From NCBI GenBank assembly GCA_963748825.1, contig CAVVKN010000023.1, forward strand, positions 96,001 to 160,000: a stretch of DNA of 64,000 nucleotides, in the 5' to 3' direction. The DNA comes from Methanotrichaceae archaeon (GTDB taxonomy: Archaea > Halobacteriota > Methanosarcinia > Methanotrichales > Methanotrichaceae). The notes below the pieces were generated by a model. It was not told where the DNA came from. It searched no databases and saw nothing but the letters and a program-made list of their open reading frames with translations. The stretch's first letter is position 1. Every line of letters starts with the position of its first letter. The translations under genes and the position numbers were made by a program. This document shows positions 2,133 to 9,645 of the stretch, one piece after another.

Positions 2133-2978
2133 TTATACCAGCGGCCGAGGCTGCTTCTTCTCCGGCAGAACGGGCAGAGGCATCGTGTTTATCAGAAGCG
2201 GCTGCTCTACCTCCTTGGCCCTCTCTACCAAGAGCTCCTTGCCCCAGCGGGTCAAACCGAAGAGCGGCACGGCGGTGCCCACCTGCACCAGAGGCTTTAC
2301 CTGCTCACGAATGTGCTTTGAGGCGCAGGCGGTAACAATATCGGCTACTGCCAAGAGCCTAGCCGCATCTTCCCGGCATAGGGCGGTGAGATGAACCCCT
2401 ACTATCATCATCCTGACACCTGCTGCTTTCTCCAGCTCTCGCAGCTTTTCCGCTGACGAGGCATCGGCAACTGTTACGGCAAATTTCTTGTATCCGGCCG
2501 CTGCGGCATAGGCCGCCCCTTCTATCTGGTCTATCTTGCCGTCCTGGGGCGAGAGCACATGCCCGTCCATGGCCCGGATGCCCTCGATAACCTCAGGTAT
2601 GGGATCAGTCTCGGTAAGTCCGGATATGTAGCCGCCCATGCCCTGAACCAGATCGGCATTGGCCGTTATCACTGTTCCCGCGCCATCGCAAACGGTAACT
2701 GCGGCATCGATAATTCCCGTCTTAATGCCGGTCATCATGGACTCAGAGGCCCCAAAGCCCACGAAGATGCCCATCTTAAGCTTGCGCCGCGCCGAGAACA
2801 TCCCGTGATTCTTTATCCTAAACTCCATGTTTGCGGCAGCCGATTCGGACGTAATTTTTTTTATGCCCCTAATCTTGTCGAAGAGAGGACACCACTCAAT
2901 CAAGGGCTCGCTCGCATCCAGCACCTTTTCGCCTTCCACTTTGACGCGAGATTTTCCCAATAGCTCCATTATGTGCAT
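2133..2978 (-). CDS. Methanogenesis marker protein 8 (DUF2099)
   Basis: MHIMELLGKSRV..WCPLF, FVGFGASE, AAVTVCDGAGTV and TACASK signatures. Confidence 0.85.
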   Translation of the reverse strand: MHIMELLGKSRVKVEGEKVLDASEPLIEWCPLFDKIRGIKKITSESAAANMEFRIKNHGMFSARRKLKMGIFVGFGASESMMTGIKTGIIDAAVTVCDGAGTVITANADLVQGMGGYISGLTETDPIPEVIEGIRAMDGHVLSPQDGKIDQIEGAAYAAAAGYKKFAVTVADASSAEKLRELEKAAGVRMMIVGVHLTALCREDAARLLAVADIVTACASKHIREQVKPLVQVGTAVPLFGLTRWGKELLVERAKEVEQPLLINTMPLPVLPEKKQPRPLV

Positions 2979-3680
2979 TTAACCCTCCAGGAAGAAGTAG
3001 ACTCTTCTATTGGCTTTGCCCTTGTTCTCCGCCTTAATCATCTTGATCTTACCTATCTCGCCTGTGTTCTTAACATGAGTGCCTCCGCAGGCCTGCCGGT
3101 CGATGCCCTCTATCTCTACTATCCGAATCATCTCTCTGTCCGGGACAGCCATGGCCAGGCGGACGAGATCCGGCAAGACAAGCGCCTCGGCTCGGGGAAG
3201 GATTTTCGTGGTGACGGCGTGGCGCTCATCGACTATGCCATTGGCCTTCTCTACATACTCGCTCATCTTGGCCTTGTCAAAGCTCTCCAGGCTGAAATCC
3301 ACGCGCGATCTGGACAGTTCAATCTGGTTTCCCGTGATCTTAGCGCCAGTCTCCAGGAATATGACTGCACTGAGGATGTGGCAGGCAGTGTGACTGCGCA
3401 TGAATTGGTAACGCCTCTTGCTATCAATGGTCCCTGATACCCTGTCACCAGGCAGGAGGCCGGCCCTGTCCAGGATATGTTTTATTGCGCGTTCTCCTGG
3501 CTCTACTCCGACTACCTGGAACAGTTCCTCGCCCCGAATAAGAATGCCCGCATCCGCGGGCTGGCCACCCGACAGCGGATAGAATGCAGTTTTATCAAGT
3601 ATCACCAACTCGCCAAAGACATCTTCTACAGTGGCATCAAAAGTCCAAAGATAGCTATCCTCTAAGTACATCTCCTTCAT
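2979..3680 (-). CDS. alaXM: Alanyl-tRNA editing protein AlaX-M
   Basis: FYPLSGGQPAD, HTACH and QACGGTHV zinc motifs; start moved to MKEMYLEDSY at 3680. Confidence 0.9.
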   Translation of the reverse strand: MKEMYLEDSYLWTFDATVEDVFGELVILDKTAFYPLSGGQPADAGILIRGEELFQVVGVEPGERAIKHILDRAGLLPGDRVSGTIDSKRRYQFMRSHTACHILSAVIFLETGAKITGNQIELSRSRVDFSLESFDKAKMSEYVEKANGIVDERHAVTTKILPRAEALVLPDLVRLAMAVPDREMIRIVEIEGIDRQACGGTHVKNTGEIGKIKMIKAENKGKANRRVYFFLEG

Positions 3681-3824
3681 AAAAAGAAATGTAAAAGCTA
3701 CTCTCTCTTCAGCCTGGCGGGCGAAAAATATCATATAGATTAAAAAATAATTTATAAGACAGACATATTTTCGACCTCAATGGAATTATTTTCAACGAAA
3801 CTTATATATATGTTATCACTCGTT

Positions 3825-4220
3825 ATGCGCCTGGTGACCGCTTTGAATACAACAGCCGCCTCAGACCTGAAAGTCGAACGCGACGAATTTGCATCCATAC
3901 TCATGAAGGTAGGCCTGAAAAGGAACGTGGCCAAAGTTTTGACCTATCTGGCAGGGGTGGCAGAGGCAACATCCCGCGAGATAGAGATTGGATCGGATCT
4001 TCGCCAGCCGGAAGTGAGCATTGCCATGCGGGAGATTCGAAAACTGGACTGGATTGCAGAGAGGGACGAGAAAAATCCAGGAAAGGGACGACCGTATCGC
4101 ATCTACAAGTTAAATAGAAGCCTTCCTGAAATAGTCGATTACCTGGAAGGGGAGAAGTCAAAGGAATCCGAGAGGATGCTGAGACAGATTGAAAAGCTCA
4201 AATCCTTGAAGTCCAATTGA
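3825..4220 (+). CDS. Winged-helix transcriptional regulator (archaeal ArsR/TrmB-like)
   Basis: SREIE..DLRQPEVSIAM HTH and GKGRPYRIY wing; TATA-like CTTATATATA at ~3801 favours the ATG at 3825. Confidence 0.8.
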   Translation: MRLVTALNTTAASDLKVERDEFASILMKVGLKRNVAKVLTYLAGVAEATSREIEIGSDLRQPEVSIAMREIRKLDWIAERDEKNPGKGRPYRIYKLNRSLPEIVDYLEGEKSKESERMLRQIEKLKSLKSN

Positions 4221-4491
4221 ACATCACAACGTTTTCTTTTCTATTCAAATCAATTTTTTAGCGATCATCGATAAGTATTTGACGTAAAATAAAATATTCA
4301 AATTTTAGCCAGCATAACCATAAATTGTGATCATTATAGAATATAATTCCAGACATGTCTCGAGAATGTGTAAATTATCTCCCGTCAAGTCCTAAACAAT
4401 ATGTAATATATTATTAAGATATATATCTTCTCTATGCAAAAAACTATATACTAATTGATTAGTAGAATAAGGCAGAAAAAAAGTAGAGGGG

Positions 4492-5610
4492 ATGGAGATT
4501 AAGTACATCATCGACGAAGCCCTGGGCAGATCTGAGGCCGAGAGCAGGATCAAACCTTCCAGCATGATCCAGAGCGATGAAGAGCTGGTTTCGGTTTTAG
4601 AAGAGCTGACCACGGTTATCCGAGTCATAGGATGCGGTGGAGGCGGCTCAAATACCATAGACCGTTTGGCAGAGTGCGGCATCCAGGGTGCGGAGCTATT
4701 TGCCATCAATACCGATGCCCAGCATCTTTTGCATATCAACGCCGACCGGCGTTTTCTCATTGGCAGGCGCACCACACGTGGCCTGGGGGCAGGAAGCTTG
4801 CCCGCCATCGGGGAGGAGGCGGCTCAGGAGGATATCGATGAGATCAAAGCGTCCGTGGAAGGAGCTGATATGGTCTTCGTTACCTGTGGACTTGGCGGCG
4901 GCACAGGAACGGGAGCGTCTCCCGTAGTAGCGGAAGCCGCACGCGAGGCGGGGGCTCTCACCATTGCCATCGTCACCATCCCCTTCAGTGCGGAAGGCTC
5001 CATCAGAATGCAGAATGCCGAAGCCGGCCTGAAGAGGCTGCGAGAGGTTTCGGACACGGTAATAGTGGTGCCCAACGATCGGTTATTAGATGTAGTTCCC
5101 AACCTCCCCCTGCAGGCGGCATTCAAGGTAGCCGATGAGGTGCTGATGCGCTCCGTCAAGGGCATCACCGAGTTGATCACCCGACCCGGACTGATCAATC
5201 TGGACTTTGCCGATGTCAGAACGGTCATGACCAACGGCGGCGTGGCCATGATCGGCATGGGTGAGGCAGAAGGCGAGGAGAAGGCACGCGACTCCGTCAT
5301 GAAGGCTCTGCGCAGTCCCCTCCTGGATGTGGATGTATCGGGCGCAAACTCGGCTCTGGTAAATGTGGTGGGAGGGCCGGATATGACTATCACCGATGCC
5401 GAAACGGTGGTAGATGAGGTCTACCAGAAGATCAATCCTGATGCTCGCATAATCTGGGGCGCGCAGATAGACCCGAACCTTGAGCATACTCTGCGGACCA
5501 TGCTTGTGGTCACCGGTGTATCGTCCCCGCAAATACTGGGAAAGGACCTGAACCGACGTGTTACATCCCGTCACGGTATAGACTTCCTCCCTCGCCGGGC
5601 GCGCTACTGA
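4492..5610 (+). CDS. ftsZ: Cell division protein FtsZ
   Basis: [17 protein letters not shown] tubulin motif, LINLDFADV. Confidence 0.97.
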
Positions 5611-5716
5611 TCTCCATCCTTTCTTGTTTTTGATTATATGTGCTAACACGTACCATGTCAATCGATGGAATTATAAGGCCGCACCCGAATTAATACTATT
5701 GATCCCATGAGCGGAT

Positions 5717-6025
5717 GTGATAGTAATTCTGACCGAGAAGGTGAGCGGCGAGCTTGAGATGCTGCAACGGCACCTGGTCATCCTCAAGCAAGTGGTGGAG
5801 AATGAACCCATAGGCATCCTCAAGCTGGCGGAGGAGACAAAGATACCCAGCCACAAGGTACGATATTCCCTGCGGGTTTTAGAGCAGGAAGGATTAATCA
5901 AGGCTTCAGCCCCGGGAGCTGTGACCACGGAGGAAACCCAATCTTTTCTAAAAGAGCTGGACGGCATGATTGAGAATCTGGCCAAGCGGGCAGAGGATCT
6001 GAAGAAGATCAAGATAGCGAGGTAA
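5717..6025 (+). CDS. Small winged-helix DNA-binding protein
   Basis: EPIGILKLAEET..HKVRYSLRVLEQEGLIKAS; stop abuts the next ATG (TAAATG). Confidence 0.8.
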   Translation: MIVILTEKVSGELEMLQRHLVILKQVVENEPIGILKLAEETKIPSHKVRYSLRVLEQEGLIKASAPGAVTTEETQSFLKELDGMIENLAKRAEDLKKIKIAR

Positions 6026-7636
6026 ATGCGTTATTCTCGAATTGCCCAGGCCCTGCAAGAGATCTCCCAGGCCCCCCGAAGCCAAAAGGTCGATCTAACG
6101 GCGGGCCTTCTGGCAGAGATTGAGCCTACGCCAAAGATGCTCTGTCCAGCCGTGCGGCTGCTTTTAGGCGAGCTTTGGCCGCCCTGGGAAGGGAGGGAGA
6201 TGGGCATAGGTCCGGAAGCTCTCATGGCGGCCTTGGCGGAGGTATCTGATCAAGATCTTCCTTCTCTGCGGGAGAGATGCAGTGACATGGGGATGGTGGC
6301 TGAGGCGGCACTGGGGCAGAAAGGGCAGCATTCCCTTTTTCGCGAGCCTCTCGAAGCCTTATCGGTTTATGAAAGGCTCCGGCGCATCTCTACATTAAAT
6401 GGCAAGGAATCGGAACAACGCAAGAATGCTCTACTAAGGGGCCTATTTTTAGAAGCAACTCCCCTGGAGGGAAAGTACATCGCACGAACTGCGCTGCGAA
6501 ATATGCAGGCCGGCATCGGGCATAAGACCATGATTGCCGCGCTCTCTTCCTCACTGCACTGCGACCAGGAGAAAATTCGCCGTGCTTACAGCCTCATGCC
6601 GGACTTGGGCAGCATTGCCGCTCTGACGTGCAGCAGGGAGCTGGAGAGAGTTGCCATCCGGCCTAAAGTTCCCACCAGGTTCATGCTATTTCGCCGCAGC
6701 GATCCTAAGGCGCCGGGAGCTTTTCTGCCTAAATATCCAGGCTTGCGGGTGCAGGTTCATAAAATAGAAAACGAGGTTATTATCTTCACCTCGCAACTAC
6801 GAAATATCACCTTTGCCCTGAACGGCATATCCCGGATGCTTGGAGAAATAGATGCGGATTTTGTCGTGGATGCCGACCTCATAGGATTTCATGATAGCGG
6901 CAATAGGAGAAAAGAGATTTGCAGCCAGGCGGAAATGCTGAGGTACATCAATCGCCGTCGCCTCTCTCGCAAGAGCAACATTCACCCGGCCCTCCTGGCC
7001 TATGACCTCATCGCCCTGCAAGGAGAAGACATTTGCAGTATGCCCTATCAGGATCGGCGAAAGAGGCTTTTATCAATACTTGGCGAGCCCAAAGCCATGC
7101 CCTTTCAGGGAATATCTCCTGCCCAGGAAGACGTCCTTATGGATAGTGGCGAAGTTGATGAATTTCTCTGCCGGGCAGGGATTGCCGGAGCCAGGGCGTT
7201 GTTAGAGCGAGATCTTCAGGCCGCCTATCGTCCCGGCGAAGTCTCCGATCAGGATTTCATCATCAGAGCCGAGCATAATCTCGCCGCTCTGATTGTGCGG
7301 ATGTCGTGGGGCCGCGGCAAAGAAGAGAAGCATTCGGCAAGATATCAGGTAGCATTAAGGAGAGGCGAAGAGCTTGTGCCAGTAGGCTGGGCATGGCGCG
7401 GTCTTCTCGATAAAGATCAACAGGCTCTATCCCATAGCCTGAGATCCCTGGTAAGAGATGAGGATGAGAGTGGTGCCGATGTAAATGCGCAGGTTGTCCT
7501 GAACCTTAAGATCAGAGGAGCGCATAAAAATGGAGAGAAATACAGCATTCTTGAGCCGGTGATTGAAAGCGTTAGGCTCAATGCCTCCCCAGAGGATGCG
7601 GATGAGCTGGAGAGGCTGGAGAAGATCTGCCCCTGA
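6026..7636 (+). CDS. ATP-dependent DNA ligase-like protein (DBD-NTase-OB) with degenerate catalytic motifs
   Basis: Ligase N-domain (ATPLEGKYIARTAL..MQAGIG), motif I-like PKYPGLRVQVHK, AYDLIAL, YQDRRKRL and C-terminal SPEDAD; motifs III-VI altered. Confidence 0.8.
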   Translation: MRYSRIAQALQEISQAPRSQKVDLTAGLLAEIEPTPKMLCPAVRLLLGELWPPWEGREMGIGPEALMAALAEVSDQDLPSLRERCSDMGMVAEAALGQKGQHSLFREPLEALSVYERLRRISTLNGKESEQRKNALLRGLFLEATPLEGKYIARTALRNMQAGIGHKTMIAALSSSLHCDQEKIRRAYSLMPDLGSIAALTCSRELERVAIRPKVPTRFMLFRRSDPKAPGAFLPKYPGLRVQVHKIENEVIIFTSQLRNITFALNGISRMLGEIDADFVVDADLIGFHDSGNRRKEICSQAEMLRYINRRRLSRKSNIHPALLAYDLIALQGEDICSMPYQDRRKRLLSILGEPKAMPFQGISPAQEDVLMDSGEVDEFLCRAGIAGARALLERDLQAAYRPGEVSDQDFIIRAEHNLAALIVRMSWGRGKEEKHSARYQVALRRGEELVPVGWAWRGLLDKDQQALSHSLRSLVRDEDESGADVNAQVVLNLKIRGAHKNGEKYSILEPVIESVRLNASPEDADELERLEKICP

Positions 7637-8523
7637 TGATCCTCAGATCCTTTGACCCCTGGAAGAGCCAGCTGTGCACCTGTCCGGCCAAGATGAGCCT
7701 GAATCCCTACACAGGATGCCCGCATGGCTGCCTTTACTGCTACGCCTCATCCTACATCCCCCGCTTTGCAGAATGCCGCCCCAAGGTTGATCTCCTAAAA
7801 CGCCTGGCCAGAGAGTCGTCCAAGATCAGGCCCGGCACCCTGGTGGCATTGTCCAATAGCTCCGATCCCTATCCCCCCATGGAAAAGGATCTGAGGCTCA
7901 GCCGGGGCTGTTTGCAGATCTTAAAAGCACGGGGTCTTCGTGTCCAGGTGGTGACCAAGTCGCATCTGGTGGCCCAGGATGCAGAGCTATTGGCCGAAAT
8001 GTTGGCCTGCGTGGCCATAACCGTCACTACGCTGCAGGACTCAATTTGCCGCAGGCTGGAGCCGGGAGCGCCATTGCCGGCAAAACGCCTTGATGCCATG
8101 GCGAAGCTGGCGGAAAGGGGTGTTGCCGTCTCGGCCAGAATCGATCCCATAATTCCCGGCATAAACGATGCAGAGATCGAACAATTGGCGGCTGCCGTCT
8201 CACGGGCCGGAGCCGGGCACATAACCTCATCCACTTATAAGGCCCGTCCGGGAAATATGAATAAGATCATCTCTGCCTTTCCGCAAGAGGGCGCAGCTTT
8301 AAAGAGCCTGTTTGCAAGAGGCGACAAGGTTGCAGGAAGCTGCTATCTTCCGGCAGATACTAGATGCGATCTGATGCAAAGGGTAAAAGAGAGTGCACAG
8401 CAAGAGAGAGTGACGTTCTCCTCTTGCCGGGAAGGATGGGCAAGAGTTCCGGGAATAAACTGCGATGGGTCGCATTTATTGTCCCCGATTAGCAGTATTG
8501 AACATAATTCCGGAGATAGATGA
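7636..8523 (+). CDS. Radical SAM protein, spore-photoproduct-lyase-like (MJ0683/COG1533 type)
   Basis: LNPYTGCPHGCLYCY (CxxxCxxC), SDPYPPME, LEPGAP, RIDPIIPGIND; TGATG overlap with the upstream gene. Confidence 0.88.
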   Translation: MILRSFDPWKSQLCTCPAKMSLNPYTGCPHGCLYCYASSYIPRFAECRPKVDLLKRLARESSKIRPGTLVALSNSSDPYPPMEKDLRLSRGCLQILKARGLRVQVVTKSHLVAQDAELLAEMLACVAITVTTLQDSICRRLEPGAPLPAKRLDAMAKLAERGVAVSARIDPIIPGINDAEIEQLAAAVSRAGAGHITSSTYKARPGNMNKIISAFPQEGAALKSLFARGDKVAGSCYLPADTRCDLMQRVKESAQQERVTFSSCREGWARVPGINCDGSHLLSPISSIEHNSGDR

Positions 8524-8772: not shown

Positions 8773-9645
8773 ATGAGGAAAATTATGGCTATCACTGTGG
8801 CCCTCATGATAGCAGCCATTATTTTAATGCCTGCTTTGGGGTACACTAATCAAGCTGCCGGAAATCAGTCTTACACTGTAAAATCAGGAGATAGAGTCGG
8901 CTACAGCGTCACAACAAATGTTCCCGCCCATAACCTGACTCCGGATATGATGGCAAACAAGTATTCTCTCAAGTCCGCCGGTATTCAGAGTACCAGGATG
9001 CCCTACTCGTTTAAGCAGGGAACCGCCACACCCTACTCCGTTAAGCTGGAAGGTGTCAAGAATGCTGCTCCACTGGGCATGAAAACCAAGCCGGTCGCAA
9101 AACTGGGAAGCATGATGGATGCAGCTCTGCCCGTGGCTGCTCCTGTGGTTGAGCCTGTAGCCACTCCTGTGGTTGAGACCGTAGCTGCGCCAATGAATGA
9201 GACCGTAGCTACTCCTGTGGTTGAGACCGTGGCCGCTCCTGTGGTTGAGACCGTAGCTGCGCCAATGAATGAGACCGTAGCTACTCCTGTGGTTGAGACC
9301 GAAGCTGAGCCAATGAATGAGACCGTGGCCGCTCCTGTGGTTGAGACCATGGCTGCACCAATGAATGAGACCAAATTCACGATCGAAGGAATTGTCACCG
9401 ATATCAATCAAACCGGCCTTGCTGGCTGGACCATGAATCTGACAATGGATGGAGCAGTTATCAATAGTGTTGCAACAGCCGCTGACGGCAAGTTTGCCTT
9501 CGCAGACCTGGCTGCTGGTGAATACAATGTTTCCGAGGTCCTCATGGAGGGCTGGAGCATAATCTCCCCCGCTGAGGGCAAGTCCGTTGTAACCATCACC
9601 AATGCCAGTGTTACCGACCTGGTATTCGTCAATCAACTCGGGTAG
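8773..9645 (+). CDS. Secreted surface protein with a P/V/T repeat linker and a C-terminal SdrD-B/CnaB-like domain
   Basis: Signal peptide, GGAGGT RBS, GLAGWT..T.ADGKFAFADLAAGEYNVSE beta-sandwich motif. Confidence 0.8.
   Translation: MRKIMAITVALMIAAIILMPALGYTNQAAGNQSYTVKSGDRVGYSVTTNVPAHNLTPDMMANKYSLKSAGIQSTRMPYSFKQGTATPYSVKLEGVKNAAPLGMKTKPVAKLGSMMDAALPVAAPVVEPVATPVVETVAAPMNETVATPVVETVAAPVVETVAAPMNETVATPVVETEAEPMNETVAAPVVETMAAPMNETKFTIEGIVTDINQTGLAGWTMNLTMDGAVINSVATAADGKFAFADLAAGEYNVSEVLMEGWSIISPAEGKSVVTITNASVTDLVFVNQLG
9142..9372 (+). repeat. Coding 24-bp / 8-aa tandem repeat (PVVETVAA / PMNETVAT), about 9.6 units
   Basis: Repeated cctgtggttgagaccgtagct and ccaatgaatgagaccgt units. Confidence 0.9.

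Follow-up and report, generated by a model that had tools for sequence, protein, structure and literature searches.

A degenerate paralog of the replicative DNA ligase kept across Methanotrichaceae, a candidate non-catalytic DNA-binding protein

Results

The locus and the fold of its ligase homolog

In a 64,000-nucleotide stretch of DNA from a Methanotrichaceae archaeon, we examined a gene encoding a 536-residue homolog of ATP-dependent DNA ligases whose catalytic motifs are degenerate. The stretch (positions 96,001 to 160,000 of contig CAVVKN010000023.1, here C23, in assembly GCA_963748825.1, here G000) is referred to as the window, and positions are those of the window unless stated otherwise. 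The gene, designated ligP, lies between a gene for a winged helix-turn-helix (wHTH) protein and one for a radical SAM protein of the COG1533 type, designated rSAM. The features considered are the following.

6026..7636, + strand: ligP, degenerate ATP-dependent DNA ligase paralog, 536 aa plus stop (open reading frame, Pfam, alignment, model, tree)
6026..6670, + strand: DNA-binding domain (DBD) of ligP, aa 1-215, the best conserved part (Pfam DNA_ligase_A_N, 6e-33)
6671..7261, + strand: adenylation (nucleotidyltransferase) domain of ligP, aa 216-412, motifs I, III, IV and V degenerate (Pfam DNA_ligase_A_M, 6e-11)
7262..7633, + strand: OB-fold domain of ligP, aa 413-536, motif VI lost, dispensable in many relatives (alignment, model)
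6728..6748, + strand: motif I remnant P-K236-Y-P-G-L-R (alignments)
6326..6340, + strand: loop Q101-H-S-L-F105, aligned with the QKSFF of Thermococcales ligases, which resembles a PCNA-interacting peptide (PIP) (HMMER alignment to 9dfa)
5717..6025, + strand: wHTH protein, 102 aa, GTG start (open reading frame; Pfam CggR_N and HTH_24)
7636..8523, + strand: rSAM, COG1533-type radical SAM protein, 295 aa (open reading frame; Pfam Radical_SAM, 2.4e-16)
7717..7740, + strand: radical SAM cluster motif C28-x3-C32-x2-C35 (translation)

The wHTH gene and ligP meet at TAAATG (6023-6028), and ligP and rSAM at TGATG (7634-7638), where one base is common to the stop and the start. A first-pass annotation of this DNA, made from the sequence alone, had described three tightly coupled open reading frames, and their bounds and both junctions were as described.

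The DBD of ligP (mean column conservation 0.63) matched DNA_ligase_A_N (PF04675) with 114.9 bits against a cut-off of 24.6. The match to DNA_ligase_A_M (PF01068) was weak and partial (42.8 bits against 26.2, profile positions 26-194 of 204), and DNA_ligase_A_C (PF04679) gave no Pfam match, yet an OB domain is seen both in the alignment and in the AlphaFold model. HMMER aligned ligP end to end with solved archaeal ligases (query 1-533). The AlphaFold2 model, built on 24 family members, had a pLDDT of 90.3 and a pTM of 0.81, and its best Foldseek matches were the archaeal DNA ligases 6wbo, 3rr5, 2cfm and 3gde (E 1e-37 to 1e-41, TM 0.67-0.73; 0.66-0.73 over the archaeal ligases matched). Taken together, the end-to-end alignment, the confident model and the Foldseek matches indicate that the three-domain layout is real, which bears out the earlier description of an intact 536-residue frame with the order DBD, nucleotidyltransferase and OB. 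The scores of ligP stay far below those set for the NCBIfam ligase models TIGR00574 (dnl1; 115.5 against 217.8) and LigA_Halo (155.5 against 830).

Loss of catalytic residues in ligP

The motifs of ligP were compared with those of the canonical ligase of its own genome and of the Thermococcus gammatolerans ligase. In ligP, KYDGAR of motif I is replaced by KYPGLR, DGE of motif III by DAD, EGLILK of motif IV by RALLER, WLKIK of motif V by FIIRA, and RFPR...RDDK of motif VI by LEPV...RLNA, while motif IIIa is retained (FDLIY to YDLIA). Every altered motif listed in the first-pass annotation was confirmed against both ligases.

We then considered the family in two separate sets, a 24-row alignment of ligP proteins (A1) and 26 family representatives taken from a search of representative sequences. 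The latter was run with a profile against 1.84 billion representatives, and its 150 best matches included about 26 clusters of the ligP type, every one with degenerate motifs; the motif and loop columns of the representatives rest on a quick MAFFT alignment. All 26 family representatives having the region are degenerate and none carries intact motifs, whereas the remaining ligase representatives of the top 150, approximately 120, are essentially all canonical, a few of them having single conservative substitutions or being truncated. The loss of the motifs is thus not chance decay. The Asp of motif I is absent in 24/24 rows of A1. At the motif I Lys position, A1 contains K in 11 rows, R in 10, L in 2 and V in 1, and the 26 representatives contain K in 8, R in 10 and other residues in 8. 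The claim that the adenylated Lys is retained therefore holds for this protein (K236) but not across the family, in which K is found in 11/24 rows. With K at this position in only part of the family, the covalent lysyl-AMP step cannot be the conserved function of the family.

Ten AMP-stabilising residues are listed for the T. gammatolerans ligase in the available part of PMC13136779. We mapped them by hand onto ligP through the HMMER alignment, with the following correspondences: E258 to L234, I259 to P235, K260 to K236, Y261 to Y237, R265 to R241, R280 to S256, E310 to D284, F350 to Y326, E409 to R390 and K414 to R395. Identity is thus confined to Y261 and R265, plus K260 in this protein. ligP has thus lost the residues for AMP binding and for the three ligation steps.

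The same genome carries a canonical 559-residue ligase with all motifs on contig C12; an intact ligase elsewhere in the genome, which the first-pass annotation had proposed to look for, is thus present. A third ligase-family gene (G000:C1:20276-20833, minus strand; L002) has a 321-residue open frame with PF01068 at 119.8 bits and no PF04675, features of a predicted minimal ATP-dependent ligase. We also considered the second ligase-like gene of some genomes of the family labelled f3 as a related pseudo-ligase, and rejected it on account of its intact motifs and its position adjoining a PolX-like gene. This second ligase (L079, G028:C1:1114500-1121500; L080, G026:C1:747000-754000) is full-length, with KYDGER, EGIIIK and RFPRF..RYDK. 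It overlaps a gene of about 570 codons whose product has an N-terminus that looks PolX-like.

Distribution and phylogeny

ligP-level matches were obtained in 23/25 genomes of the window's genus, its own included, the two misses being 56% and 80% complete. Sixteen genomes from two further families of the class gave none. Across the family (Methanothrix/Methanotrichaceae in database records), presence was scored at E <= 1e-49 for the best match, a level that canonical ligases do not reach, and ligP was counted in 93/105 genomes. The 12 family genomes without it are all 7 of genus g10 and five incomplete genomes. In 12/12 ligP-bearing loci examined in other genera, as in the same-genus loci, ligP lies directly 3' of the wHTH gene. 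Public databases name the proteins "DNA ligase", "DNA ligase 1", "ligB" or "hypothetical protein".

A maximum-likelihood tree of 67 rows resolved ligP as a single clade (SH-aLRT 100) apart from canonical ligases. We could not show an origin by duplication within the family, as ligP is not nested with the family's canonical ligases. On this unrooted tree the clade attaches by a long branch beside P0141, a representative whose motifs are canonical, and a long-branch artefact is possible.

Selective constraint and repeated loss of the OB domain

Pairwise dN/dS values were calculated by the Nei-Gojobori method (NG86), with the canonical ligase compared in the same genome pairs. For ligP they were 0.20-0.31 in 11/12 pairs, and 0.10 with saturated dS in the twelfth. 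By domain, the ranges were 0.15-0.28 for the DBD, 0.18-0.28 for the adenylation domain and 0.25-0.50 for the OB domain. The canonical ligase gave 0.09-0.17, the wHTH gene 0.06-0.17 and rSAM 0.13-0.37. ligP is thus under purifying but relaxed selection, about half as constrained as the real ligase, and values near 1, which random decay would give, were not found. Across 24 ligP members, 33 columns are invariant and a further 27 are at least 90% conserved.

Among the 93 ligP genomes, the OB domain is absent in 53 and reached in 39, and a contig end cuts the gene in one. Proteins without it end at about residue 372-457, and their genes are clean open reading frames of about 410-440 codons that abut the next gene. 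On a tree of the 24 members, the presence or absence of the domain changed at least eight times. The selected core of ligP is therefore the DBD and the degenerate adenylation domain, the OB domain having been lost repeatedly. This result tells against the nick-encircling scaffold proposed in the first-pass annotation; encircling needs the OB domain, which 53/93 genomes lack and which was lost at least eight times on that tree.

A PCNA-binding-like loop

According to the available parts of PMC6212441 and PMC13136779, QKSFF is the PCNA-binding motif of the Pyrococcus furiosus ligase, in which the DBD and the adenylation domain contact PCNA and the OB domain does not. In ligP the aligned loop lies on the surface, and Q101 and L/I104 are invariant in 24/24 A1 rows and 26/26 family representatives. 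The two domains that touch PCNA in the P. furiosus ligase are the two that ligP always keeps. The genome of the window has one PCNA, on contig C4. The median net charge of the DBD is 0 in ligP vs -5 in the canonical ligase, and that of the adenylation domain +4.5 vs +6.

Neighbouring genes

Two further genes belong to the conserved surroundings.

4492..5610, + strand: ftsZ, conserved upstream neighbour, context outside the feature (Pfam Tubulin and FtsZ_C; synteny)
8773..9645, + strand: secreted repeat protein gene, conserved downstream neighbour (open reading frame, synteny)

Upstream of ftsZ, a TrmB-like wHTH gene (3780-4220, plus strand; weak Pfam match of 17 bits) and a gene on the minus strand (2979-3734), which we presume to be AlaX-like, are kept across the family. 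With these two genes conserved, the block alaX-like/trmB-like/ftsZ/wHTH/ligP/rSAM/secreted protein is syntenic by descent. The secreted protein has a signal peptide, tandem repeats of the ETVAAPVV/ETVATPVV type and a C-terminal prealbumin-like domain (Pfam SdrD_B, 32.3 bits).

Four RNA libraries, one from each of four studies, contain contigs 90-99% alike that cover the region. X1 (5028-6673) and X2 (4660-6566) each run from ftsZ through the wHTH gene into ligP, X6 (5713-6070) spans the wHTH/ligP junction and X3 (7592-7729) spans that of ligP and rSAM. The contigs over the 3' half of ligP and over rSAM are shallow and those over the secreted-protein gene deep, although depth cannot rank expression. 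ATGA-type overlaps of ligP and rSAM occur in 13/20 same-genus loci. The upstream wHTH gene and ligP probably share a transcript, which would usually take in the downstream rSAM gene as well.

The wHTH protein reached the Pfam gathering scores of CggR_N (PF21715; 33.3 against 30) and HTH_24 (PF13412; 25.0 against 21.9), and its gene, which evolves slowly, is single-copy in 118/121 genomes of the class. In f3 genomes it lies between an FAA-hydrolase gene and the glutamyl-tRNA synthetase gene, with neither ftsZ nor any ligase or radical SAM gene nearby. The wHTH gene is thus the older, class-wide gene beside which ligP was later placed, and their coupling is positional only. In the f3 loci L065-L068, it overlaps the stop of the FAA-hydrolase-family gene and precedes the synthetase gene, the trio being kept in 4/4.

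The radical SAM protein

In rSAM, C28, C32 and C35 are invariant in 22/22 orthologs, as are C14, C16, C92, C264 and C276. Among the NCBIfam models, rSAM_PA0069 (NF033668) gave 137.6 bits against a cut-off of 360 (5e-40; profile positions 57-249 of 348), Rv2578c 92.8 against 430 (2e-26), and spore photoproduct lyase (SPL; TIGR04070) 20.8 against 400. The structural model of rSAM had a pLDDT of 81.7; in Foldseek, the best-covering solved folds were SPL (TM 0.55-0.58, 13-14% identity), and NifB matched with similar E-values. When the rSAM alignment was used as a profile against PDB sequences, SkfB and NifB matched marginally (E ~0.006) and SPL was not reached at E <= 0.01. The protein that the first-pass annotation called SPL-like thus has the CxxxCxxC motif and SPL as its best-covering fold, but it resembles SPL only distantly and is not one by its NCBIfam score. 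We take C140 and Y98 of SPL, residues named in the titles of PDB mutant entries, to be its catalytic Cys/Tyr hydrogen-atom relay. Pfam and NCBIfam revealed no SPASM or peptide-recognition domain in rSAM. Partial, weak matches in PADLOC, of the wHTH protein to a Csa3/CARF C-terminal wHTH (~1e-4) and of rSAM residues 7-38 to the DUF1848 piece of a DRT model, were set aside and not taken as a defence system. A second, more distant COG1533-like gene lies about 1.7 kb past the end of the window (G000:C23:161721-162197, minus strand); its product is 35% identical to rSAM over residues 18-174 and gives 55.6 bits with the PA0069 model.

An rSAM ortholog was found in 80/105 family genomes and 0/54 f3 genomes. 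Both ligP and rSAM are present in 72 of the 105 genomes, ligP only in 21 (genera g12, g16 and g20, and the incomplete G007), rSAM only in 8 (all 7 of g10, and G141) and neither in 4. The rSAM gene is broken in G021, G009, G163 and G141. As for synteny, rSAM stands directly downstream of ligP in 10/12 loci of other genera, as the first-pass annotation would have it, but is displaced in g10, G020 and G001. In both g10 loci examined (L071 and L072), where ligP is absent, rSAM occupies another site, next to the secreted-protein gene. In L073 (G020; 3752-7379) and L074 (G001; 2720-6014), inserted TPR genes part rSAM from ligP; in both, rSAM still adjoins the secreted-protein gene and ligP has no OB domain. 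In G001 the insertion left 24 codons of the 5' end of rSAM behind, together with a partly duplicated secreted-protein gene. A complex prediction for ligP (residues 1-415) and rSAM, both entered as alignments and run without controls, scored 0.00 against a mark of 0.32 and is evidence neither way.

Discussion

From the ligase-like DBD, the neutral-to-basic domains and the invariant loop aligned with QKSFF, we infer a function in binding rather than catalysis: ligP is probably a catalytically dead paralog of the archaeal replicative ligase that works as a DNA-binding, and probably PCNA-binding, protein. Such a protein could sit on PCNA-loaded nicks or ends or mark them, or it could recruit or regulate other factors there.

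Several observations weigh against this proposal. K236 is kept in 10/13 aligned members of the window's genus, so that residual nucleotide chemistry may persist there. The PIP-like argument consists of one loop and a fast alignment, and Q is also present at the loop position in 68 of about 120 canonical representatives, most canonical ligases likewise having Q-x-x-L. All 7 g10 genomes do without ligP. In genus g21 the protein stops at 363 aa, within the adenylation domain and before motif IV, and five in-frame stops interrupt the ligP gene of G078; the relaxation of selection is evident and the gene is still eroding. As the long-branched clade joins the tree outside the canonical ligases that were sampled, ligP may stem from an old duplication or from transfer. 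Finally, RNA-library contigs are no proof of transcription or of a single transcript, and such libraries may contain DNA.

The first-pass annotation had proposed the three genes as a candidate repair module. Read as one DNA-repair system, the pseudo-ligase would clamp damaged or nicked DNA and hand the COG1533 radical SAM protein to the lesion, with the wHTH protein as regulator. The overlap of the ligP stop with the rSAM start, recurring as ATGA-type overlaps in 13/20 same-genus loci, the immediate adjacency in 10/12 loci of other genera and the joint presence in 72/105 genomes would fit such a system, as would the confinement of both genes, within the class, to this family and their similar rates of evolution. 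COG1533/SplB genes are moreover SOS-regulated in several bacteria according to the available part of PMC8565304. On the other hand, gene order kept within one family is expected from descent alone, and the partners separate: 21 genomes have ligP without rSAM and 8 have rSAM without ligP, rSAM resides elsewhere in g10, and in G020 and G001 it has stayed with the secreted-protein gene when TPR insertions split it from ligP. The wHTH gene is class-wide (118/121) with other neighbours outside the family, rSAM falls far under the SPL and PA0069 cut-offs, and the neighbours whose families were checked include no repair genes. We therefore regard a repair system of this kind as unlikely; the three genes are not an obligate module, and even a looser functional link between ligP and rSAM seems doubtful. 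It is also conceivable, though we give it little weight, that rSAM is tied to the downstream secreted repeat protein, for instance in modifying or maturing a cell-envelope protein, which would be compatible with a non-catalytic binding role of ligP. The two genes are adjacent in both g10 loci examined, remain so after the insertions in G020 and G001, and adjoin in 9/10 loci of other genera with rSAM, the tenth ending at a contig edge. Yet g12 and g16, which have no rSAM, carry a homolog of the secreted protein directly after ligP (weak, 25-30% identity), rSAM has no SPASM or peptide-recognition domain that we could find, its nearest solved folds are SPL and NifB, and the RNA-library contig depths of the two genes differ about 50-fold, though depth cannot rank genes.

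As for ligP itself, the earlier suggestion of a repurposed chemistry would have it bind a nucleotide and catalyse a step other than ligation, such as non-covalent or Arg/Lys-dependent nucleotidyl transfer or the de-adenylation of abortive intermediates. The adenylation-domain fold is indeed kept under constraint (dN/dS 0.18-0.28), along with the motif I tail G-x-R-V-Q-V-H (R241 in 22/24 rows, Q243 and H245 invariant), a basic residue at the motif IV position (R395 in 21/24), the acidic pair of motif III (D/E at 282 in 23/24 and at 284 in 19/24) and K or R at the motif I position in 21/24. We nevertheless find this very unlikely, since the retained Lys is not a family feature: the nucleophile position is L, V, W, N, A or F in some members. 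The motif V lysines, motif VI and the contacts to the AMP phosphate and ribose (R280, E409, D262) are likewise lost or variable. Motif VI is needed for adenylation, and the OB domain that bears it is missing from 53/93 genomes, while the g21 protein stops even before motif IV. That ligP has no function at all and is a slowly decaying duplicate held by linkage and time, with rSAM decaying likewise, would account for a dN/dS about twice that of the canonical ligase, the repeated C-terminal truncation, the in-frame stops in G078, the split or stop in G164 and G102, the loss in g10 and the broken rSAM genes of G021, G009, G163 and G141. It is however quite improbable: the great majority of the 93 genomes, over 15 genera and with identities as low as 31-40%, retain open frames of 410-546 aa, the dN/dS of the DBD and of the adenylation domain (0.15-0.28) is far below 1, and across 24 members 33 columns are invariant and 27 more at least 90% conserved. 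The truncations, in addition, always take the same domain and leave clean frames abutting the next gene.

Returning to ligP as a non-catalytic DNA- and perhaps PCNA-bound protein, one could imagine, with little expectation that it will hold, a PCNA-docked dead ligase serving as an adaptor or gate at nicks or damage, which recruits rSAM, and possibly the wHTH protein, or holds the real ligase off until repair is done. If true, this would add an undescribed pseudoenzyme layer to archaeal Okazaki-fragment or repair processing, and would open a first way into the function of archaeal radical SAM proteins of the COG1533 type. Going by the names in public databases, Methanothrix genomes seem to have two replicative ligases, only one of which can plausibly ligate. 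A dead paralog of the replicative ligase, as ligP appears to be, kept family-wide in globally important acetoclastic methanogens, would point to the parts of a ligase that matter beyond catalysis, namely the DBD, the fold of the adenylation domain and the PIP-like loop, and ligP is a directly testable candidate for a factor that acts in archaeal replication or repair by staying bound to the clamp or to DNA rather than by catalysis. A full-text literature search retrieved no description of the ligP paralog, although supplements and most subscription journals lie outside its scope and a prior mention is possible.

Among known systems, ligP is closest to the archaeal/eukaryotic replicative ATP-dependent ligases of the Lig1/LigB type (P. 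furiosus 2CFM, Thermococcus 3RR5/6WBO/9DFA, Archaeoglobus fulgidus 3GDE). It shares their three-domain architecture and fold, the sequence motifs of the DBD, motif IIIa, and a Q-x-x-L loop at the site of the PIP-like QKSFF. It differs from them in its degenerate motifs I, III, IV, V and VI, in a catalytic Lys that is not conserved and in an OB domain that is often absent; judged by branch lengths, it has evolved 3-5 times faster than the canonical ligase of the same genomes. Its neighbour rSAM shares the CxxxCxxC radical SAM core with SPL (4FHC) and the PA0069 and Rv2578c families but, in contrast to COG1533/SplB-type proteins, falls below every family cut-off, is shorter (295 aa) and has additional invariant Cys residues at 14, 16, 264 and 276. 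With regard to function without catalysis, the available text of PMC3694833 describes yeast Dnl4 as supporting end joining without catalysis, a ligase scaffold acting by binding as we suggest for ligP, and that of PMC5201418 describes the AdoMetDC prozyme, a dead paralog that acts without catalysis of its own, as ligP may do. Whereas the former is a point-mutant phenotype of an active enzyme and the latter a eukaryotic prozyme, ligP would be a separate, naturally dead paralog that has become fixed in one archaeal family.

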